Shown here piece after piece: positions 1,885-12,671 of a stretch of DNA of 14,095 bases. The translations under genes and the position numbers were made by a program. The stretch lies in the IMG/VR virus record IMGVR_UViG_2695420718_000010; one strand, given 5' to 3'. Within the stretch, counting starts at the first letter, position 1, and each line of letters opens with the position of its first letter. The notes under the pieces are model-generated. The model worked only from the letters and a program-made list of their open reading frames with translations, did no database searches and had not been told where the DNA came from. The DNA comes from a virus. Taxonomy: Duplodnaviria; Heunggongvirae; Uroviricota; Caudoviricetes.

Positions 1885-2210
1885 AAACATTTCGCTGGAA
1901 AGTGAAGCCGGATATGGAGGTGAACTCGCAGCCATCGGTGCGTGAAGTGCGTTTTGGTGACGGGTATTCGCAGCGTATGGCGGCGGGGCTGAATGCTGAC
2001 CTGAAAACATACCGTGTGACGCTTTCCGTGACCCGGGAGGAGGCCCGACATCTGGAGGCATTCCTGGCAGAGCACGGTGGCTGGAAGGCGTTTCTGTGGA
2101 CACCTCCTTATGCATACCGGCAGATAAAGGTGACCAGTGCCGCCTGGTCATCACGGGTTCGCATGCTGCGGGTTGAATTCAGTGCCGAGTTTAAGCAGGT
2201 GGTGAACTGA
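1881..2210 (+). CDS. M: Minor tail protein M (copy 1)
   Basis: 109 aa, MKTFRWKVKP...VRFGDGYSQR...HGGWKAFLWTPPY...RMLRVEFSAEFKQVVN, closely matching lambda gpM. The start overlaps the H stop (ATGA) and the stop overlaps the L start (TGATG at 2208-2212). Confidence 0.92.
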   Translation: MKTFRWKVKPDMEVNSQPSVREVRFGDGYSQRMAAGLNADLKTYRVTLSVTREEARHLEAFLAEHGGWKAFLWTPPYAYRQIKVTSAAWSSRVRMLRVEFSAEFKQVVN

Positions 2211-2908
2211 TGCAGGATATTCACGAAGAAAGTCTGAACGAGTCGGTTAAATCAGAGCAGTCACCGCGGGTGGTACTCTGGGAAATCGACCTGACGGTAC
2301 AGGGTGGTGAGCGGTATTTTTTCTGCAATGAGCTGAATGAAAAAGGGGAGGCGGTCACCTGGCAGGGGCGGCAATATCAGGCATACCCGATTGACGGCAG
2401 TGGCTTTGAGATGAACGGGAAGGGCAGCAGTGCCCGCCCGTCGCTGACGGTGTCGAATCTGTTCGGTCTGGTCACCGGAATGGCGGAGGACCTGCAGAGC
2501 CTGGTGGGGGCCACGGTGGTCCGCCGCCGGGTGTATGCCCGTTTTCTGGATGCGGTGAATTTTGTGGCGGGCAATCCGGAAGCGGACCCGGAGCAGGAGC
2601 TGAGCGACCGCTGGGTGGTGGAGCAGATGTCAGAGCTGACGGCCATGACAGCCTTGTTTGTGCTGGCAACACCGACGGAGACGGACGGAGCGCTGTTTCC
2701 TGGTCGCATCATGCTGGCGAACACCTGTATGTGGGATTACCGGGGAGATGAATGCGGGTATAACGGTCCTGCGGTGGCGGATGAGTTCGACACCCCCACC
2801 ACGGATATCCGTAAGGACAGATGCAGCAAGTGCATGCGCGGGTGTGAGATGCGCGGCATGGTGGCTAATTTTGGCGGTTTCCTTTCCATTAATAAACTTT
2901 CGCAGTAA
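2210..2908 (+). CDS. L: Minor tail protein L (copy 1); C-terminal cysteine cluster consistent with the Fe-S motif reported for lambda gpL
   Basis: 232 aa, MQDIHEESLNESVKSEQSPRVVLWEIDL... with the C-terminal motif CMWDYRGDECGY...DRCSKCMRGCEM. Translationally coupled to M. Confidence 0.92.
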   Translation: MQDIHEESLNESVKSEQSPRVVLWEIDLTVQGGERYFFCNELNEKGEAVTWQGRQYQAYPIDGSGFEMNGKGSSARPSLTVSNLFGLVTGMAEDLQSLVGATVVRRRVYARFLDAVNFVAGNPEADPEQELSDRWVVEQMSELTAMTALFVLATPTETDGALFPGRIMLANTCMWDYRGDECGYNGPAVADEFDTPTTDIRKDRCSKCMRGCEMRGMVANFGGFLSINKLSQ

Positions 2909-2913
2909 ATCCA

Positions 2914-3657
2914 ATGACACAGACAGAATCAGCGATTCTGGCGCATGCCCGGCGGTGTGTGCCTGCGGAGTCGTGCGGCTTCGTGGTGAGAACGCCGGAG
3001 GGGGAGCGGTATATCCCTTGTGTGAATATCTCTGCAGAGCCGGAGGCGTATTTTCGTATTGCACCGGAAGACTGGCTGCGGGCAGAGATGCAGGGGGAGA
3101 TTGTGGCGCTGGTCCACAGCCACCCCGGTGGTCTGCCCTGGCTGAGCGAGGCCGACCGGCGGCTGCAGATAAAAAGTGCACTGTCCTGGTGGCTGGTCTG
3201 CCGGGGGGAAATTCATAAATTCCGCTGTGTGCCACATCTGACAGGACGGCGCTTTGAGCACGGGGTGACGGACTGTTACACGCTGTTCCGGGATGCATAC
3301 CATCTGGCGGGAATTGATATGCCGGATTTTGAGCGTGAGGATGACTGGTGGCGTAACGGTCAGAACCTTTACCTGGACAATATGGCGGTCACCGGCTTTT
3401 ACCGGGTGCCCCTGTCCTCTGCACAGGCGGGCGATATCCTGCTGTGCTGCTTTGGCGCATCGGTGGCCAATCATGCCGCCATTTACTGCGGCAACGGTGA
3501 GCTGCTTCACCATCTGCCTGAACAACTGAGTAAACGGGAGAGGTATTCCGAAAAATGGCAACGACGAACGCATTCAGCCTGGCGTCACCGCCACTGGCAC
3601 GTATCTGCCTTCACGGGGATTTACAACGATTTGGCCGCCGCCTCAGCCTGTATGTGA
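2914..3657 (+). CDS. K: Tail assembly protein K (copy 1), with JAMM/MPN-like and NlpC/P60-like motifs
   Basis: 247 aa, MTQTESAILAHARRC.... A JAMM-type H-x-H-x7-S-x2-D motif is visible (HSHPGGLPWLSEAD, about nt 3115-3156), plus a candidate NlpC/P60 catalytic Cys (GVTDCYTLF) and His (NHAAIY). The exact start and the roughly 100-nt overlap with the I start were not resolved. Confidence 0.88.
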   Translation: MTQTESAILAHARRCVPAESCGFVVRTPEGERYIPCVNISAEPEAYFRIAPEDWLRAEMQGEIVALVHSHPGGLPWLSEADRRLQIKSALSWWLVCRGEIHKFRCVPHLTGRRFEHGVTDCYTLFRDAYHLAGIDMPDFEREDDWWRNGQNLYLDNMAVTGFYRVPLSSAQAGDILLCCFGASVANHAAIYCGNGELLHHLPEQLSKRERYSEKWQRRTHSAWRHRHWHVSAFTGIYNDLAAASACM

Positions 3658-4559
3658 ACACGGCAGCGGAAGCCATTCGTGCCCTGTCGATGCAGATGCC
3701 GGGATTCCGCCGTCAGATGAACGAAGGCTGGTACCAGATACGTATTCGCGGTGAGGACACGGCACCGGAGGCGGTGTACGCCCGTCTTCACGAACAGCTG
3801 GGTGAGGGAACGGTCATCCACATTGTGCCGCGACTGGCCGGGGCCGGAAAGGGTGGACTGCAGATTGTATTTTATGCCGAATCGGATGCGCAGCGTGCGG
3901 ACTGGCAGAAAGGCTTGCAGGAGGGGCTCAGTAACTGGGTGGACAATGCATCCGATTACGCCTCACAGGCAGCACAGCTTGCGACGGAGGGTATCTCAGG
4001 GATGGTGAATAACATCACGGAGATGCTGAACGGAAACAAAGTGGAATGGCGCAACTGGGCCTCATCCGTACTGCAGGAAATCTCAAAAGTCCTTATGAAT
4101 GCCGCGATTGTCAACGGGATCAAGACGGCGGCAAACGGTATGTCCGGTGCGGGAGGATTTCTTGGCAGCATTGGTGACTGGCTGGGCGGTGCGGTGGTCA
4201 ATGCAAAAGGCGGCGTGTATACCTCGGCAAACCTGAGCGCGTACAGCAACAGCATTGTGGACACGCCCACGTACTTTGCCTTTGCAAAAGGGGCCGGGCT
4301 GATGGGGGAAGCCGGACCTGAAGCCATTATGCCCCTGACCCGGGCGGCGGATGGCTCGCTGGGCGTACGCGCCGTGGGTAGTATGAACGGTAGTGCGGGT
4401 CTGGTGTATTCCCCGGTCTACCACATCGCCATTCAGAATGACGGGACTAATGGCCAGATAGGGCCGGAGGCGGCAGGCAGTCTTGTGCAGCTGATTGACC
4501 AGCGGGTGCAGGCGGTGATGCTGTCCATGCGACGTGACGGAGGAATGCTGAGTGGCTGA
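3555..4559 (+). CDS. Chimeric ORF: the N-terminal 104 aa of tail assembly protein I fused in frame to the C-terminal ~230 aa of a second, divergent tape measure protein (H')
   Basis: Nt 3555-3868 look identical to nt 7663-7976, the 5' end of the intact I gene; the two diverge at 3869 versus 7977. The downstream part (…WRNWASSVLQEISKVLMNAAIVNG…GSIGDWLGG…FAFAKGAGLMGEAGPEAIMPL…HIAIQNDGTNGQIGPEAAGSL…RRDGGMLSG) parallels the H C-terminus in this window (…WRGFTRSVLSMLTEIFLKQAMVG…GSIGSAMGG…HVVIQNDGTNGQAGPQL…MRDGGVFSGG). Its stop overlaps the M2 GTG start (GTGGCTGA), as at a native H/M junction. Confidence 0.75.
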   Translation: MATTNAFSLASPPLARICLHGDLQRFGRRLSLYVNTAAEAIRALSMQMPGFRRQMNEGWYQIRIRGEDTAPEAVYARLHEQLGEGTVIHIVPRLAGAGKGGLQIVFYAESDAQRADWQKGLQEGLSNWVDNASDYASQAAQLATEGISGMVNNITEMLNGNKVEWRNWASSVLQEISKVLMNAAIVNGIKTAANGMSGAGGFLGSIGDWLGGAVVNAKGGVYTSANLSAYSNSIVDTPTYFAFAKGAGLMGEAGPEAIMPLTRAADGSLGVRAVGSMNGSAGLVYSPVYHIAIQNDGTNGQIGPEAAGSLVQLIDQRVQAVMLSMRRDGGMLSG

Positions 4560-4893
4560 GATAAAAACGCTGCATCTGGTCCCGCGTGAAGGGATGCAGG
4601 TGAGTGAGAAGCCGTCGGTGGTGAGGGTGCGGTTTGGTGACGGTTATGAACAGCGTCGCCCCACAGGACTGAATCCTCAACTGAAGACGTTTCAGGCGGT
4701 GTTCCGGGTGACGGATGAGTCAACCCGGCGCTGGCTGGAAGAGTTTTTATCGTGGCATGGTGGTTACCGTGCCTTTTTGTGGCGACCGCCGAAACATAAC
4801 CGGACGGTGAGGGTTGTGTGCCGTGAGTGGAGTGTCACGGATAATGCCCGGTACAGTGATTTCAGTTGCACGATAGAGCAGGTGGTGAACTGA
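4552..4893 (+). CDS. M: Minor tail protein M (copy 2, divergent paralogue; GTG start)
   Basis: 113 aa, (M)AEIKTLHLVPREGMQVSEKPSVVRVRFGDGYEQR...HGGYRAFLWRPP...IEQVVN. It shares the VRFGDGY and HGG(W/Y)(K/R)AFLW(T/R)PP motifs with M1 but is clearly diverged. The stop overlaps the L2 ATG (TGATG at 4891-4895). Confidence 0.85.
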   Translation: MAEIKTLHLVPREGMQVSEKPSVVRVRFGDGYEQRRPTGLNPQLKTFQAVFRVTDESTRRWLEEFLSWHGGYRAFLWRPPKHNRTVRVVCREWSVTDNARYSDFSCTIEQVVN

Positions 4894-6336
4894 TGCAGGA
4901 TATTCACGAAGAAAGCCTGAACGAGTCGGTTAAGTCAGAGCAGTCACCGCGGGTGGTACTCTGGGAAATCGACCTGACGGTACAGGGCGGTGAGCGGTAT
5001 TTTTTCTGTAATGAGCTGAATGAAAAAGGGGAGCCGGTCACCTGGCAGGGGCGGCAATATCAGGCATACCCGATTGACGGCAGCGGTTTTGAGATGAGCG
5101 GGAAGGGCAGCAGTGCCCGCCCGTCGCTGACGGTGTCCAATCTGTTTGGTCTGGTCACCGGAATGGCGGAGGATTTGCAGAGCCTGGTGGGGGCCACGGT
5201 GGTCCGCCGCCGGGTGTATGCCCGTTTTCTGGATGCGGTGAATTTTGTGGCGGGCAATCCGGAAGCGGACCCGGAGCAGGAGCTGAGCGACCGCTGGGTG
5301 GTGGAGCAGATGTCAGAGCTGACGGCCATGACAGCCTTGTTTGTGCTGGCAACACCGACGGAGACGGACGGAGCGCTGTTTCCTGGTCGCATCATGCTGG
5401 CGAACACCTGTATGTGGGATTACCGGGGAGATGAATGCGGGTATAACGGTCCTGCGGTGGCGGATGAGTTCGACACCCCCACCACGGATATCCGTAAGGA
5501 CAGATGCAGCAAGTGCATGCGCGGGTGTGAGATGCGCGGCATGGTGGCTAATTTTGGCGGTTTCCTTTCCATTAATAAACTTTCGCAGTAAATCCAATGA
5601 CACAGACAGAATCAGCGATTCTGGCGCATGCCCGGCGGTGTGTGCCTGCGGAGTCGTGCGGCTTCGTGGTGAGAACGCCGGAGGGGGAGCGGTATATCCC
5701 TTGTGTGAATATCTCTGCAGAGCCGGAGGCGTATTTTCGTATTGCACCGGAAGACTGGCTGCGGGCAGAGATGCAGGGGGAGATTGTGGCACTGGTCCAC
5801 AGTCATCCCGGTGGTCTGCCCTGGCTGAGCGAGGCCGACCGGCGGCTGCAGATAAAAAGTGCACTGTCCTGGTGGCTGGTCTGCCGGGGGGAAATTCATA
5901 AATTCCGCTGTGTGCCACATCTGACAGGACGGCGCTTTGAGCACGGGGTGACGGACTGTTACACGCTGTTCCGGGATGCCTACCATCTGGCGGGAATTGA
6001 TATGCCGGATTTTGAGCGTGAGGATGACTGGTGGCGCAACGGTCAGAACCTTTACCTGGACAATATGGCGGTCACCGGCTTTTACCGGGTGCCCCTGTCC
6101 TCTGCACAGGCGGGCGATATCCTGCTGTGCTGCTTTGGTGCTTCGGTACCGAACCATGCCGCCATTTACTGCGGCAACGGTGAACTGCTTCACCATCTGC
6201 CTGAACAACTGAGTAAACGGGAGAGGTATTCCGAAAAATGGCAACGACGAACGCATTCTGTCTGGCGTCACCGCCACTGGCACGCATCTGCCTTCACGGG
6301 GATTTGCAACGATTTGGCCGCCGCCTCAGCCTGTAA
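4878..6336. repeat. Direct repeat copy B of the L-K unit
   Basis: Homology to copy A begins at about 4878 (GCAGGTGGTGAACTGATGCAGG, the M/L junction) and ends at the K2 terminus, where the sequence switches to the interior of L. Confidence 0.85.
4893..5591 (+). CDS. L: Minor tail protein L (copy 2)
   Basis: The protein from MQDIHEES... is near-identical to L1, with a few substitutions (for example EAVTW to EPVTW, EMNGKG to EMSGKG). The six-frame ORF begins upstream at 4866, but the homologous, translationally coupled ATG is at 4893. Confidence 0.9.
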   Translation: MQDIHEESLNESVKSEQSPRVVLWEIDLTVQGGERYFFCNELNEKGEPVTWQGRQYQAYPIDGSGFEMSGKGSSARPSLTVSNLFGLVTGMAEDLQSLVGATVVRRRVYARFLDAVNFVAGNPEADPEQELSDRWVVEQMSELTAMTALFVLATPTETDGALFPGRIMLANTCMWDYRGDECGYNGPAVADEFDTPTTDIRKDRCSKCMRGCEMRGMVANFGGFLSINKLSQ

Positions 6337-6340
6337 CTGA
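5597..6340 (+). CDS. K: Tail assembly protein K (copy 2)
   Basis: 247 aa, near-identical to K1 and K3 but with scattered differences (SVPNHAAIY, HSVWRHRHWHASAFTGICND, C-terminal ...ASACN). The JAMM HSHPGG...SEAD motif is retained. Its stop at 6338-6340 sits at the junction into L3. Confidence 0.88.
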   Translation: MTQTESAILAHARRCVPAESCGFVVRTPEGERYIPCVNISAEPEAYFRIAPEDWLRAEMQGEIVALVHSHPGGLPWLSEADRRLQIKSALSWWLVCRGEIHKFRCVPHLTGRRFEHGVTDCYTLFRDAYHLAGIDMPDFEREDDWWRNGQNLYLDNMAVTGFYRVPLSSAQAGDILLCCFGASVPNHAAIYCGNGELLHHLPEQLSKRERYSEKWQRRTHSVWRHRHWHASAFTGICNDLAAASACN

Positions 6341-7011
6341 ACGAGTCGGTTAAGTCAGAGCAGTCACCGCGGGTGGTACTCTGGGAAATCGACCTGACGG
6401 TACAGGGTGGTGAGCGGTATTTTTTCTGTAATGAGCTGAATGAAAAAGGGGAGCCGGTCACCTGGCAGGGGCGGCAATATCAGGCATACCCGATTGACGG
6501 CAGCGGTTTTGAGATGAGCGGGAAGGGCAGCAGTGCCCGCCCGTCGCTGACGGTGTCCAATCTGTTTGGTCTGGTCACCGGAATGGCGGAGGATTTGCAG
6601 AGCCTGGTGGGGGCCACGGTGGTCCGCCGCCGGGTGTATGCCCGTTTTCTGGATGCGGTGAATTTTGTGGCGGGCAATCCGGAAGCGGACCCGGAGCAGG
6701 AGCTGAGCGACCGCTGGGTGGTGGAGCAGTTATCAGAGCTGACGGCCATGACGGCCTCGTTTGTGCTGGCCACACCGACCGAGACGGACGGGGCGCTGTT
6801 TCCCGGTCGCATCATGCTGGCGAACACCTGTATGTGGACCTACCGCTCTGATGAGTGTGGTTACACGGGCGGGGCTGTGGCGGATGAGTTCGATAAACCC
6901 ACCACGGATATCCGTAAGGACAGATGCAGCAAGTGCATGCGCGGGTGTGAACTGCGCAGGAATGTCGGCAATTTTGGCGGTTTCCTTTCCATTAACAAAC
7001 TTTCGCAGTAA
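6337..7011 (+). pseudogene. L: Minor tail protein L (copy 3), 5'-truncated: lacks the first ~8 codons and the native ATG/RBS; 3' third diverged
   Basis: The frame opens right after the TAA at 6334-6336 and reads LNESVKSEQSPRVVLWEIDL..., which is L residues 9 onward. The only in-frame start candidate is the GTG at 6373. The 5' two-thirds match L2; the C-terminal region differs (CMWTYRSDECGYTGGAVADEFDKPTT...CELRRNVGNF) but keeps the cysteines. Confidence 0.7.
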
Positions 7012-7021
7012 ATCCCGGTTT

Positions 7022-7765
7022 ATGACACAGACTGAATCAGCGATTCTGGCGCATGCCCGGCGGTGTGTGCCTGCGGAGTCGTGCGGCTTCGTGGTGAGAA
7101 CGCCGGAGGGGGAGCGGTATATCCCTTGTGTGAATATCTCTGCAGAGCCGGAGGCGTATTTTCGTATTGCACCGGAAGACTGGCTGCGGGCAGAGATGCA
7201 GGGGGAGATTGTGGCGCTGGTCCACAGCCACCCCGGTGGTCTGCCCTGGCTGAGCGAGGCCGACCGGCGGCTGCAGATAAAAAGTGCACTGTCCTGGTGG
7301 CTGGTCTGCCGGGGGGAAATTCATAAATTCCGCTGTGTGCCACATCTGACAGGACGGCGCTTTGAGCACGGGGTGACGGACTGTTACACGCTGTTCCGGG
7401 ATGCATACCATCTGGCGGGAATTGATATGCCGGATTTTGAGCGTGAGGATGACTGGTGGCGTAACGGTCAGAACCTTTACCTGGACAATATGGCGGTCAC
7501 CGGCTTTTACCGGGTGCCCCTGTCCTCTGCACAGGCGGGCGATATCCTGCTGTGCTGCTTTGGCGCATCGGTGGCCAATCATGCCGCCATTTACTGCGGC
7601 AACGGTGAGCTGCTTCACCATCTGCCTGAACAACTGAGTAAACGGGAGAGGTATTCCGAAAAATGGCAACGACGAACGCATTCAGCCTGGCGTCACCGCC
7701 ACTGGCACGTATCTGCCTTCACGGGGATTTACAACGATTTGGCCGCCGCCTCAGCCTGTATGTGA
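7022..7765 (+). CDS. K: Tail assembly protein K (copy 3)
   Basis: ATG at 7022; the 247-aa protein is identical to K1. The nucleotide sequence from 7034 onward appears identical to 2926 onward. Confidence 0.9.
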   Translation: MTQTESAILAHARRCVPAESCGFVVRTPEGERYIPCVNISAEPEAYFRIAPEDWLRAEMQGEIVALVHSHPGGLPWLSEADRRLQIKSALSWWLVCRGEIHKFRCVPHLTGRRFEHGVTDCYTLFRDAYHLAGIDMPDFEREDDWWRNGQNLYLDNMAVTGFYRVPLSSAQAGDILLCCFGASVANHAAIYCGNGELLHHLPEQLSKRERYSEKWQRRTHSAWRHRHWHVSAFTGIYNDLAAASACM

Positions 7766-8343
7766 ACACGGCAGCGGAAGCCATTCGTGCCCTGTCGATG
7801 CAGATGCCGGGATTCCGCCGTCAGATGAACGAAGGCTGGTACCAGATACGTATTCGCGGTGAGGACACGGCACCGGAGGCGGTGTACGCCCGTCTTCACG
7901 AACAGCTGGGTGAGGGAACGGTCATCCACATTGTGCCGCGACTGGCCGGGGCCGGAAAGGGTGGACTGCAGATTGTGCTGGGGGCGGCAGCCATCGTGGG
8001 CTCTTTCTTCACTGCCGGGGCATCAATGGCGTTATGGGGTTCAGCCCTGGCAGCCGGTGGTTTTTCTGCCACCACGATGCTGTTTTCACTTGGAGCCAGC
8101 ATGATTCTGGGCGGTGTGGCCCAGATGCTGGCCCCGAAGGCAAAAACACCGGATTACCGCGCAACGGATAACGGCAGACAGAACACGTACTTTTCCTCGC
8201 TGGATAACATGATTGCCCAGGGGAACCCGATGCCGGTGCCTTACGGTGAAATGCTGGTTGGCTCCCGGCGAATCTCCCAGGACATCAGTACCCGTGATGA
8301 AGGCGGTGACGGGAAGGTGGTGGTTATCGGGCGGCAGGCATAA
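7663..8343 (+). CDS. I: Tail assembly protein I (intact)
   Basis: 226 aa, MATTNAFSLASPPLARICLHGDLQRFGRR...IHIVPRLAGAGKGGLQIVLGAAAIVGSFFTAGAS...MLAPKAKTP...NTYFSSLDNMIAQGN...GEMLVGSRRISQDISTRDEGGDGKVVVIGRQA, closely matching lambda gpI as I recall it (N-terminal domain plus hydrophobic Gly/Ala-rich C-terminal half). Confidence 0.92.
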   Translation: MATTNAFSLASPPLARICLHGDLQRFGRRLSLYVNTAAEAIRALSMQMPGFRRQMNEGWYQIRIRGEDTAPEAVYARLHEQLGEGTVIHIVPRLAGAGKGGLQIVLGAAAIVGSFFTAGASMALWGSALAAGGFSATTMLFSLGASMILGGVAQMLAPKAKTPDYRATDNGRQNTYFSSLDNMIAQGNPMPVPYGEMLVGSRRISQDISTRDEGGDGKVVVIGRQA

Positions 8344-8354
8344 AACATAAAAAA

Positions 8355-8386
8355 TCCCGCAGTGCTCACGGACAGGAACTGCGGGA
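8355..8386 (-). terminator. Candidate intrinsic terminator for leftward (sodC) transcription
   Basis: A 9-bp inverted repeat, TCCCGCAGT (8355-8363) and ACTGCGGGA (8378-8386), with a 14-nt loop. On the minus strand it is followed by a T-rich run (complement of AAAACATAAAAAA, 8342-8354). The loop is long, so stability is uncertain. Confidence 0.4.
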
Positions 8387-8503
8387 GAGTTACGAAGATT
8401 GAGTGTAAGGAATTATTCTTATGTCACGACAAAAACATTAACTCAGAGAGGGAGGATGTGCCGTTCTTTTCAGGGAGAAAGGATTTATCGTCCTGAGGAA
8501 TAA

Positions 8504-8527
8504 AGGTAAGGGGCCCGCCCCTTACCT
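8504..8527. terminator. GC-rich hairpin immediately downstream of the sodC stop; candidate terminator
   Basis: AGGTAAGGGG (8504-8513), loop CCCG, CCCCTTACCT (8518-8527). On the minus strand it is followed by TTTATTCC. It lies 7 nt from the sodC stop codon. Confidence 0.45.
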
Positions 8528-8533
8528 GACTGA

Positions 8534-9061
8534 TTATTGAATGATGCCGCAGGCCATTCTCGCACCACCACCGCCCAGGGGCTCCGGATGGTCATGATGG
8601 TTATCACCGCCAGCATGAAGCATGAGAGAACGCCCTTTAATCTCTTTTAATGAGTTCAGTCTCGGGGCCAGGACCGGGTAGTTCGCTTTTCCGTCATGCG
8701 TCACGAACAGCGCAGGGAGGTCGCCCAGGTGTCCATCCGGAGACCAGGGGCCAAGATGTTTGCCGGTGTTTTTCGGGTCAAAGTGACCGCCAGCCGATAA
8801 TGCTGCGACCGGTTTTCCGTCTTTCAGTGCCGGGGCGCAATTTCCTTTTTCGTGCACATGAAAACCATGAATGCCTTCAGACAGAGAGTGAAGGGCTGGT
8901 GTGAACAGCAGACCGTAGGGGGTCTCCTGAATGGTTATTTTTCCAATGCTGACTTCTTTTCCGTCAGCACTGACAAGGTTCATTGGGACTTCCTGTTCTG
9001 CTGCGTATCCGCATGATGCTGCTGTCAGCATGGCAATGGCAGCAATGATTTTACATTTCAT
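8534..9061 (-). CDS. sodC: Periplasmic Cu/Zn superoxide dismutase (prophage-borne SodC)
   Basis: 175 aa from the ATG at 9061-9059 (the supplied 344-aa ORF is over-extended at its N-terminus). It has a signal-peptide-like N-terminus ([20 protein letters not shown]) and Cu/Zn-SOD signatures ([49 protein letters not shown]). An RBS (GAGGG) lies about 6 nt upstream on the minus strand. Confidence 0.93.
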
Positions 9062-9194
9062 AAAACCCTCATTAATTCCGTTAACAGACTGAGCTTGCTG
9101 GTTACAGGGTAACAAACAGCGTTCTGATGATATCGCGCAATAGCTGTGCAATATCCTATCACTGCGATTAATAATACCAATTGAGAGGAACATT

Positions 9195-12100
9195 ATGGGT
9201 AAAGGTGGCGGCAGGGCGCACACGCCGGTTGAGGTAAAGGACAATCTTAAGTCCACGCAGATGATGAGCGTGATTGATGCCATTGGTGAAGGGCCGATTG
9301 AAGGTCCGGTGAAGGGGCTGCAGAGTATCCTGGTGAACAAAACCCCGCTGACGGACACGGACGGTAATCCTGTGATACATGGTGTGACCGCGGTCTGGCG
9401 CGCCGGGGAGCAGGAGCAGACACCACCTGAAGGCTTTGAGTCCTCCGGGGCGGAAACCGCACTGGGCGTGGAAGTGACGAAGGCAAAGCCGGTAACGCGC
9501 ACCATTACATCCGCGAACATTGACCGCCTGCGGGTCACCTTCGGGGTGCAGTCACTGTTGGAGACCACCTCAAAGGGCGACCGTAATCCCTCTTCTGTCC
9601 GACTGCTGATTCAGTTGCAGCGTAACGGTAACTGGGTGACGGAAAAGGATGTCACCATTAACGGCAAGACCACCTCACAGTACCTGGCGTCGGTGATTCT
9701 GGAGAATCTGCCTGAGCGGCCCTTTAACATCCGGATGGTCCGGGAGACAGCGGACAGCACCCCGGACCAGCTGCAGAATAAGACGCTCTGGTCGTCATAC
9801 ACCGAAATCATCGATGTGAAACAGTGCTACCCGAACACGGCGATTGTGGGGCTGCAGGTGGATGCGGAGCAGTTTGGCGGTCAGCAGATGACGGTGAACT
9901 ACCATATCCGCGGTCGCATCATCCAGGTACCGTCAAACTATGACCCGGAAAAACGCACGTACAGCGGCATCTGGGACGGCAGCCTGAAACCGGCATACAG
10001 CAACAACCCGGCCTGGTGCCTGTGGGACATGCTGACTCACCCGCGCTATGGCATGGGAAAACGTCTGGTGGCGGCGGATGTTGACAAGTGGGCGCTGTAT
10101 GCCATCGGGCAGTACTGCGACCAGACGGTCCCGGATGGTTTCGGGGGCACAGAGCCGCGGATGACCTTTAATGCGTACCTGTCACAACAGCGTAAGGCGT
10201 GGGACGTTCTCAGTGATTTCTGCTCGGCGATGCGCTGTATGCCGGTATGGAGCGGCCAGACGCTGACGTTCGTTCAGGACCGCCCGTCGGATGTGGTGTG
10301 GCCGTACACCAACAGCGATGTGGTGGTGGATGATAACGGCGTGGGGTTCCGCTACAGCTTCAGTGCCCTGAAGGACCGGCACACGGCGGTGGAGGTGAAT
10401 TACACCGACCCGCAGAACGGCTGGCAGACCTCCACGGAACTGGTGGAAGACCCGGAAGCCATACTGCGCTACGGACGCAACCTGCTGAAGATGGACGCGT
10501 TCGGCTGTACCAGCCGCGGTCAGGCCCACCGTGCCGGACTGTGGGTGATAAAGACCGGACTGCTGGAAACGCAGACGGTGGATTTCACGCTCGGGTCTCA
10601 GGGGCTGCGGCACACACCCGGTGACATCATTGAAATCTGTGATAACGACTATGCCGGGACCCTGACCGGCGGACGTGTCCTGTCCATTGATGCCGCCAGC
10701 CGCACCCTGACACTGGACCGTGAGGTGACCCTGCCGGAGACAGGTGCCGCCACGGTGAACCTGATTAACGGCAGCGGTAAGCCGGTGAGTGTGGACATCA
10801 CCGCACACCCCGCGCCGGACCGGATACAGGTCAGCACCCTGCCTGATGGTGTGGAGACATACGGTGTGTGGGGACTCTCCCTGCCGTCACTGCGTCGTCG
10901 CCTGTTCCGCTGTGTCTCCATCCGGGAAAACACGGACGGCACCTTTGCCATCACGGCGGTGCAGCACGTACCGGAAAAAGAAGCCATCGTGGATAACGGG
11001 GCCAGCTTTGAGCCGCAGTCAGGCACCCTGAACAGCGTTATTCCACCGGCAGTGCAGCACCTGACGGTGGAGGTGAGCGCGGCTGACGGTCAGTATCTGG
11101 CACAGGCGAAATGGGACACGCCGCGGGTGGTGAAGGGTGTGCGCTTCAGTCTGCGCCTGACCAGTGGAAGCGGTGAAAACAGCCGCCTGGTGACCACCGC
11201 CATCACCGCAGACACGGCGCACCGTTTCAGTGGCCTGCCGCTCGGGGAATACACCCTGACAGTCAGGGCAATTAACAGTTATGGCCAGCAGGGCGAACCG
11301 GCCACCACCACCTTCCGGATTAACGCGCCAGCAAAACCCGCCACCATTGAACTGACGCCGGGGTATTTTCAGATAACGGCGGTCCCGCGTCTTGCGGTGT
11401 ATGACCCGACGGTACAGTTTGAGTTCTGGTTTTCGGAGACAAAAATCGCAGACATATCTCAGGTGGAAACCTCTGCCCGTTATCTGGGGACCGGCAGTCA
11501 GTGGAGTGTATCCGGCCCGCACATTAAGCCCGGGAAGGATTTCTGGTTTTACGTGCGCAGCGTCAACCTGGTGGGGAAATCTGCGTTTGTGGAAGCCAGT
11601 GGCCGGGCCAGCAATGATGCAGAAGGGTATCTGGGGCTGTTTCGGGAAAAAATAGGAAAACTGCATCTGGCTCAGGGGCTGTGGGAGCTGATAGACAACA
11701 GCCAGCTTGCGGATGAGATGGCGGAGATGAAGACCACCATCACCGAAACCCGCAATGAAATCACACAGACGGTCAGTAAAACGCTGGAAGACCAGAGCGC
11801 CACCATACAGCAGATACAGCGCGTGCAGAAGGACACAAATGATGACCTTGCTGCACTTTACATGCTGAAGGTACAGAAAACAAAAAATGGCATACCCTAT
11901 GTTGCCGGTATTGGAGCGGGGATTGAGGATACTGATGGCCAGCCCCTGAGCAACATACTGCTGCTGGCTGACCGTATTGCGATGATTAACCCGGAGGACG
12001 GCAACACCACGCCGTTATTTGTGGCGCAGGGGAATCAGTTGTTCATGAACGATGTGTTCCTGAAGCGGCTGTTTGCGGTGAGTATCACCTCGTCCGGCAA

Positions 12101-12671
12101 TCCCCCGACGTTTTCCCTGACGCCGGAAGGGAAGCTGACAGCCAGGAACGCGGATATCAGCGGAGCAATTACCGCGAATACCGGCACGCTCAATAATGTC
12201 ACCATTAACGAGAACTGTGTCATCAGAGGGAAACTGTCTGCAAACCAGATTGAAGGCGACCTGGTGAAGACGGTGGGGAAAGCCTTTCCCCGGAATAACA
12301 GTTATGCCAGCGGGACGGTAACCGTCACAGTTTACGATGACCAGGGCTTCGACCGGCAGATTATCATTCCCCCGGTGCTGTTTCGCGGGACGAAACACCA
12401 GAATTTCAACAGCCCGAATCAGCAGTCGTACTGGTATTCCACCTGTAAGCTGCAGGTGCTGAAGAACGGGGTTGAGATTTTCCATGAACCGGCAACGGAT
12501 GTCAGCCGGGTGTTCTCATCGGTGATAGATATGCCGGCAGGGCGGGGTCATGTCACCCTGACGTTTAATGTGTCGTCGGCCGGTGCGAACAACTGGACGC
12601 CGACAACGTACATCAGTGATTTACTGGTTGTGGTCATGAAAAAATCCACGGCAGGGATCAGTATCAGCTGA
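9195..12671 (+). CDS. J: Host specificity / tail tip protein J (central tail fibre)
   Basis: 1158 aa, [39 protein letters not shown]...[15 protein letters not shown]...[22 protein letters not shown]...[19 protein letters not shown]...[26 protein letters not shown]...[34 protein letters not shown]...[10 protein letters not shown].... This is collinear with lambda gpJ as I recall it, with a diverged C-terminal receptor-binding region. The RBS GAGAGGAA lies 5-6 nt upstream. Confidence 0.95.

Follow-up and report, generated by a model that had tools for sequence, protein, structure and literature searches.

A predicted promoter-less member of the PasB small RNA family behind the sodC moron of Escherichia coli lambdoid prophages

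The 190-bp gap between the tail gene I and sodC in an E. coli lambdoid prophage consists, in our confident assessment, of an element of the PasB small RNA (sRNA) family and the terminator of sodC. The gap was analysed in a DNA stretch of 14,095 nucleotides (IMG/VR record IMGVR_UViG_2695420718_000010), hereafter called the window. Judged by its sequence, the window copy of the element is a divergent, undescribed, promoter-less variant of a known family; the element is known, but its arrangement had not been described before. The gap would comprise two modules that are read leftward, namely the 3' end of the sodC moron (8450–8533) and the transcribed region of an sRNA of the phage backbone (8348–8444).

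Results

The I–sodC gap and its surroundings

The window covers the tail region of the prophage, with genes H, M, L, K and I followed by sodC on the minus strand, and by J and lom. The tail assembly gene I (7765–8343, plus strand, stop codon TAA at 8341–8343) is the 3' neighbour of the sRNA terminator. The sodC gene (8534–9061, minus strand) encodes a prophage Cu,Zn superoxide dismutase of the sodC-F type and is 100% identical to a stretch annotated as sodC in RefSeq, and the host specificity gene J lies at 9195–12671 on the plus strand. An earlier note on this DNA had correctly described the gap as a convergent region of 190 bp: I ends at 8343 and the minus-strand sodC ends at 8534. A segment of 281 bp spanning the gap is 100% identical to annotated E. 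coli chromosomes, in which the neighbours are named 'tail assembly protein' and 'sodC'. The note had also seen no convincing open reading frame (ORF) between the two inverted repeats of the gap, and indeed the 117 bp there hold only mechanical ORFs, one at 8362–8496 (plus strand, 44 aa, GTG start) and one at 8485–8616 (minus strand, 43 aa), both of which straddle the junction of two unrelated sequence modules.

Upstream of the gap, the tail genes are repeated (2174–8343): L–K blocks with 94–100% identity start at 2234, 4917 and 6337, and at 2914, 5597 and 7022, and an ORF at 3555–4559 joins the start of I to the C-terminus of the tape-measure protein. The K-to-L junction near 6340 matches complete genomes as two pieces only, and the closest genome has single copies. 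The repeats represent either a rearranged prophage or an assembly chimera.

Inverted repeats and terminator strength

Both inverted repeats were found where the earlier note had placed them. The first one, IR1 (8355–8386), has arms of 9 nt (8355–8363 and 8378–8386) that are 100% complementary and enclose a 14-nt loop. On the minus strand it forms the predicted terminator hairpin of the sRNA, with the stem UCCCGCAGU/ACUGCGGGA and ΔG of about −15 to −16 kcal/mol. AAAAAA at 8349–8354 of the plus strand precedes IR1, giving a minus-strand RNA in which the hairpin is followed by UUUUUUAUGUUUUAU with a run of six U residues (U6); this U-rich tail, read from the sequence, occupies 8340–8354 of the minus strand and overlaps the stop codon of I (8341–8343) on the opposite strand. 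The second one, IR2 (8504–8527), has arms of 11 nt (8504–8514 and 8517–8527) that are 100% complementary and 2 nt apart. It is the predicted intrinsic terminator hairpin of sodC, located on the minus strand 6 nt past the sodC stop codon (ΔG −16.8, T-score 2.7), and its minus-strand tail, UUAUUCCUCA (8494–8503), is a short, interrupted U-tract, UUAUU.

The U-tracts of IR1 and IR2 are present on the minus strand only, and the plus-strand flanks are T-poor. Terminators were scored by an uncalibrated heuristic of the d'Aubenton-Carafa type (1990); the scores on the minus strand were +22 (strong) for IR1 and −0.8 (borderline) for IR2, and those on the plus strand were −61 and −42, respectively. In the region 7900–9400, five terminator-like sites were found, compared with 1.3 ± 1.1 in shuffled sequences. 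Folding of the 190 nt was modestly better than that of shuffled controls on both strands (z −2.72 for minus and −2.77 for plus), and the 112-nt minus-strand part with IR1 reached z −3.48. Both hairpins are kept in hundreds of genomes. By these scores and folding energies, IR1 is predicted to be a strong terminator for a leftward transcript, and IR2 is probably sodC's own borderline terminator, and a leaky one. The bidirectional terminator that the earlier note had thought of was not supported, as neither hairpin combines an A-run before it with a T-run after it. Since the plus strand has no T-run at either hairpin, gene I is without an intrinsic terminator here, and both hairpins act on leftward transcription.

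Homology of the left part of the gap to PasB

PasB of EPEC E2348/69 is an 83-nt sRNA encoded on the minus strand of prophage PP6 (NC_011601.1, 1466343 to 1466261), between E2348C_1436 and E2348C_1437 (PMC8550237). It was verified by northern blotting, fell by log2 values of −6.8 and −2.4 in a Δhfq strain, had 37 RIL-seq partners, and was present at a higher level in the 'non-activating' condition (PMC8550237). E2348C_1436 is the gene of tail assembly protein I (end 1466255) and E2348C_1437 is J (start 1466496). PasB lies antisense, 6–7 nt past the stop codon of I, which is the same placement as that of the segment 8348–8444 in the window.

The PasB and window loci align throughout the transcribed region, with 69% identity over 101 columns in blastn (E 5.6e-8) and with E 1.6e-5 in nhmmer. 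A covariance model built from 29 family variants, the window sequence being part of the training set, matched positions 8348–8444 of the minus strand over the full model with 82 bits. With the promoter-bearing copy of Stx2c/Stx1a phages, the same segment shares 97% identity. The northern probe for PasB was AATCCCGCAGTGATCGCGGAGCT (Table S6, PMC8550237), and its first 12 nt (AATCCCGCAGTG...) are identical to window positions 8352–8363. On the basis of these matches and of synteny, we assign 8348–8444 (minus strand, roughly 97 nt) to the transcribed region, i.e., the body and the terminator, of a promoterless sRNA gene of the PasB/EcOnc22 family. As in the family at large, the terminator tail lies antisense and 6 nt from the I homology, the transcribed region is homologous, and IR1 with U6 supplies the Hfq-binding 3' module, a Rho-independent terminator ending in a U-tail; an own promoter is missing from the window copy. 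The Hfq-dependent RNA of ~83–98 nt has been demonstrated for PasB and EcOnc22 only (PMC8550237, PMC4104026).

A search of Rfam 15 at the gathering threshold gave no match in the window, and none at the PasB or EcOnc22 loci. The best sub-threshold match in the window was STnc400 (23 bits versus a threshold of 80), which reflects terminator resemblance only.

Relationship to EcOnc22–24 of EHEC Sakai

EcOnc22, EcOnc23 and EcOnc24 of Sakai prophages Sp15, Sp14 and Sp11, respectively, are mutual homologues with Hfq-CRAC peaks (Tree et al. 2014, PMC4104026), and their northern band of ~85 nt is destabilised in the Δhfq strain (PMC4104026). When the published positions were placed on the current Sakai record, all three fell in I–J gaps. 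The mapping of EcOnc22–24 depends on a coordinate offset of +128 to +146 that was inferred: the Rfam match of AgvB lies 137–146 nt to the right of the published AgvB1 peak, and the two genome versions are 128 nt apart in total length. With the offset applied, the EcOnc22 peak falls inside the predicted sRNA (locus L004, 1137–1227). The sRNAs predicted in Sakai include one at NC_002695.2 2902836–2902926. More generally, the EcOnc coordinates in Table S2 of Tree et al. 2014 differ from NC_002695.2 by about +137 to +146 nt at 1.94 Mb (AgvB landmark), and mapping from them needs correction.

The EcOnc22–24 element is 69% identical to the window copy. Most probably, PasB and EcOnc22–24 form one family, to which the window segment would be homologous as well. 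In Table S6 of PMC8550237, PasA and PasD are listed with EHEC homologues, and PasB without one.

Diversity and promoters of the family

A scan of IMG/VR for the terminator pattern CCCGCAG-N6-22-CTGCGGGATTTTTT retrieved 120 stretches, which together with E. coli loci gave 132 sites. The terminator stem CCCGCAG/CTGCGGG and a T-run were located 6–15 nt past the I-homologous 3' end in 126 of them, always antisense. The sRNA bodies are mosaic and diverse (47 distinct transcribed sequences); shared among them are the terminator, a UUAAUCUUC box, GCGTTA in the start region and a middle part rich in A and U. The covariance model did not match loci retrieved with protein I from Enterobacter, Pseudocitrobacter, Rahnella, Pantoea and E. 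ruysiae, and therefore the family appears to be restricted to Escherichia-type phages. The only conserved RNA fold (RNAalifold, 29 variants) was the terminator stem, which was preset by the search pattern and thus has no value as covariation. A 5' stem suspected by eye was dropped, as its pairing register differs between clades.

All 55 distinct upstream regions of sodC-less copies contain the box TCTGA-N6-TCACA, whose half-sites never vary, unlike the spacer between them, and whose flanks are A/T-rich (e.g., L003 1866–1915 and L004 1085–1125, and sodC-less IMG/VR loci such as L016, L020 and L034). Exactly 24 nt downstream of the box there is a −10-like hexamer, which is TATAAT in 29 regions, AATAAT in 13 and TATCAT in 6. 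In PasB, the −35 hexamer TTCACA lies 16 nt upstream of TATAAT. The consensus of the CRP site is TGTGA-N6-TCACA, and the conserved box looks like a candidate CRP site near the class-II position. As a side hypothesis, a CRP-like box would fit the lower level of PasB in glucose-rich DMEM than in LB.

Some IMG/VR contigs have tandem PasB-like genes between I and J, about 220–450 bp apart: two in L051, two in L056, and three in L061. The tandem genes fall into different sequence clades, and every copy is equipped with a promoter box and a terminator of its own.

The phage backbone and the sodC moron

In 87 records of Stx1a/Stx2c phages without sodC, the end of I and window positions 8344–8449 were found at ~96% identity, and the similarity then ended. 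The reciprocal search with 8387–9194 gave the same homology edge, 8449. Judged by this edge, the left part of the gap is phage backbone and the right part is sodC moron. Accordingly, the suggestion of the earlier note that a small RNA belonging to the sodC moron might be encoded here was half right: there is an sRNA homologue, that of PasB at 8348–8444 of the minus strand, but it did not come with the moron, as it is present in sodC-less phages.

The last bases common to sodC-less phages (8445–8449, minus strand) correspond to about −1 to −5 from the predicted start of the sRNA, which puts the junction at 8449/8450. Beyond it, the sodC moron forms a cassette of 745 bp (8450–9194, minus strand) that replaces everything from the −10 hexamer of the sRNA to the ribosome-binding site of J of the sodC-less phages. 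The place of the sRNA promoter is occupied by the cassette spacer of 54 nt (8450–8503, minus strand), which includes the weak tail of IR2 (8494–8503). The complete cassette was found in two phage records only, and the match to sodC of Salmonella phages was confined to the coding part, at about 65% identity.

The same junction is present in the window and in 42/42 sodC-linked copies, which comprise IMG/VR loci, Sakai Sp10 and the closest complete genome: the family homology begins at CTCTGAGTTAATG, about 5 nt before the predicted +1. Where sodC-less copies have the TCTGA-N6-TCACA box and the −35 and −10 hexamers, the sodC-linked ones have ...CACATCCTCC, the 54-nt spacer, IR2 and sodC. The box is absent from the whole window, and a promoter scan of the cassette spacer revealed no sigma-70-like site. 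As read from these alignments, the promoter of the sRNA was removed by the sodC moron. With its promoter and CRP-like box replaced by the cassette, the window copy cannot fire on its own.

Another hairpin (ACAGGCACC...GGTGCCTGT) occurs in the I–J gaps of sodC-less phages, with a T-run behind it on the I/J strand (L004 1040–1066; L001 1719–1752; L003 about 1933–1960). It is a plus-strand terminator just upstream of J, and the sodC cassette deletes that too. Several I–J gaps exceed the basic ~200 bp by 100–190 bp, with the extra sequence located between the sRNA promoter and J. J is about 385–389 nt away in L013, L027, L067 and L088, and about 298–304 nt away in L022, L028, L034 and others. The I–J gap appears to be a recurrent insertion site.

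State and distribution of sodC-linked copies

The sRNA body lies 55 nt downstream of the weak terminator of sodC. The full arrangement is present in 539 of the 5,426 complete E. coli genomes, and the body, stem and U-tail are intact in every sodC-linked copy, recombinants included. The 42 copies are almost identical, differing by a few SNPs apart from the recombinants, and this near-identity means that sequence conservation cannot reveal selection on the sRNA body.

In the four recombinants (L087, L139, L149, L154), the cassette and the sRNA body match the window type, the loop of the terminator and the I gene beyond it derive from another clade, and the breakpoint lies inside the conserved terminator stem. 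In L130, from about position 8170 onward in the sRNA sense, an IS-like sequence follows directly after ...GGCACATCC and parts the sodC terminator spacer from the sRNA body.

Tree et al. (PMC4104026) list no Hfq-CRAC peak in the I–sodC gap of Sakai Sp10, which has the same arrangement at NC_002695.2 1963484–1963673. Strain E2348/69 has only the chromosomal sodC, and its RIL-seq data are consequently silent on the sodC-linked copy. Our literature search for transcripts at the 3' end of prophage sodC (sodC-F, EHEC) found none. Predicted duplexes of the sRNA body with the local 5' ends of sodC and J and the 3' end of I were no better than shuffles (fractions 0.32–0.43).

Possible transcription of the sodC-linked copy

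Expression of prophage sodC-F is documented for log phase, stationary phase and anaerobic conditions (PMC2569942), and hence a source of read-through transcription exists. Transcripts of sodC that escape IR2 would continue through the sRNA body and end at IR1. In this role IR1 would be a fail-safe terminator, keeping sodC transcription from going antisense into I–K–L. The read-through isoform would carry the PasB-like module, that is, the A/U-rich body, the terminator hairpin and the U-tail, as a long 3' UTR of sodC, and an Hfq-binding sRNA could be processed out of it. We incline slightly toward this picture of tandem terminators and read-through, although IR2, weak as its score is, may be an efficient terminator in the cell. 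A bolder proposal is that the moron captured the resident sRNA, so that a PasB-family gene under CRP-like control became the distal 3' UTR of sodC-F, made only by read-through of a leaky terminator; we regard it as doubtful.

The insertion of sodC may instead have killed the sRNA gene, with IR2 stopping essentially all sodC transcripts and IR1 left idle; 8348–8444 would then be a young pseudogene, still in place only because the arrangement arose recently. In favour of such a silent relic is the deletion of the promoter and the CRP-like box in 42/42 sodC-linked copies with no sigma-70-like site in their place, and the lack of a reported Hfq-CRAC peak in Sakai Sp10 points the same way, as does the near-identity of the copies, which have had little time for decay. 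However, some read-through is to be expected from a borderline terminator with only UUAUU as its tail, and the body, stem and U-tail are intact in every copy, even in the recombinants. We consider the relic plausible, if on the whole somewhat improbable. Expression of an independent sRNA from a cryptic or non-sigma-70 promoter in the spacer 8450–8503 would explain why the transcribed region is kept exactly from about −5, and CATCCT at the −10 position retains A2, T3 and T6; yet the promoter scan was negative, by eye there are at best 2/6 matches at −35, and the conserved TCTGA-N6-TCACA box is missing, which makes such a promoter very unlikely.

Two readings do without an sRNA. Two stable hairpins between convergent genes would suit a plain bidirectional terminator for I and sodC, but the plus-strand scores and the lack of plus-strand T-runs speak against it, IR1 with the adjoining 60 nt is a conserved sRNA gene also where there is no convergent gene, and the plus-strand terminator of sodC-less phages is a different hairpin, nearer to J. 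There is thus very little room for this reading. Still harder to credit is a small protein encoded by the 44-aa ORF (8362–8496, plus strand) or the 43-aa ORF (8485–8616, minus strand). These ORFs do exist mechanically, and the current Sakai annotation lacks the tag ECs_1988, which would fall between ECs_1987 (I) and ECs_1989 (sodC); it may once have been a small-ORF call in the I–sodC gap. Both ORFs, however, span unrelated modules, the GTG of the plus-strand ORF lies inside the IR1 loop, the second half of this ORF is absent from sodC-less phages, and RefSeq has no CDS here.

Discussion

The assignment of the left part of the gap to the PasB family gives a conserved structured gap in a virulence-associated prophage region a place in a validated sRNA family. 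Like the window copy, PasB (Pearl Mizrahi et al. 2021, PMC8550237) lies antisense behind I, between I and J, and the two share the stem CCCGCAG/CTGCGGG with a U-run, the AAUCUUC box and the A/U-rich body. A promoter of its own (TTCACA-N16-TATAAT) and the TCTGA-N6-TCACA box distinguish PasB from the window copy, which lacks both and is located behind sodC. A survey that includes PasB used BLAST with a word size of 28 and >75% query coverage (Zhu, Shabalina & Storz 2026, bioRxiv 10.64898/2026.05.13.724894), and would therefore miss the 69%-identical window copy; the words sodC, promoter and EcOnc do not occur in its main text. The family is thus more diverse than a BLAST survey of such high stringency could detect. 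EcOnc22/23/24 are also antisense elements between I and J, once the offset is applied, but unlike the window copy they have their own promoter and no linkage to sodC. In this way PasB of EPEC and EcOnc22–24 of EHEC, which were named separately, are tied to one I–J locus.

Hfq-dependent sRNAs derived from 3' UTRs, such as CpxQ, SroC and DapZ, share the terminator of the parent mRNA. If read-through occurs, the window module would resemble them, as it would close the sodC mRNA at its 3' end, the hairpin and the U-tail serving as the Hfq-binding end. It would differ from them in that it lies behind the mRNA's own terminator and, to judge from the sodC-less phages, began as an independent gene. 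Morons are well known in the late operons of lambdoid phages, e.g., sodCI of Salmonella Gifsy-2, and lom and bor of λ. Like these, the sodC moron is a self-contained gene on the opposite strand, with its own promoter and terminator, between tail genes; unlike these, it replaced the promoter of a resident sRNA, and it shows in a concrete instance how such a promoter is displaced when a moron inserts.

What this arrangement means for the prophage depends on the read-through isoform. If it is absent, the region is an annotated relic with two ordinary terminators. If it is real, it would represent a natural conversion of an independent sRNA gene to a 3'-UTR sRNA under new control. Should the capture of the sRNA by the moron prove true, the sRNA regulon would be induced along with the periplasmic superoxide dismutase in infection or oxidative stress, and about one in ten complete E. 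coli genomes would be rewired in this way.
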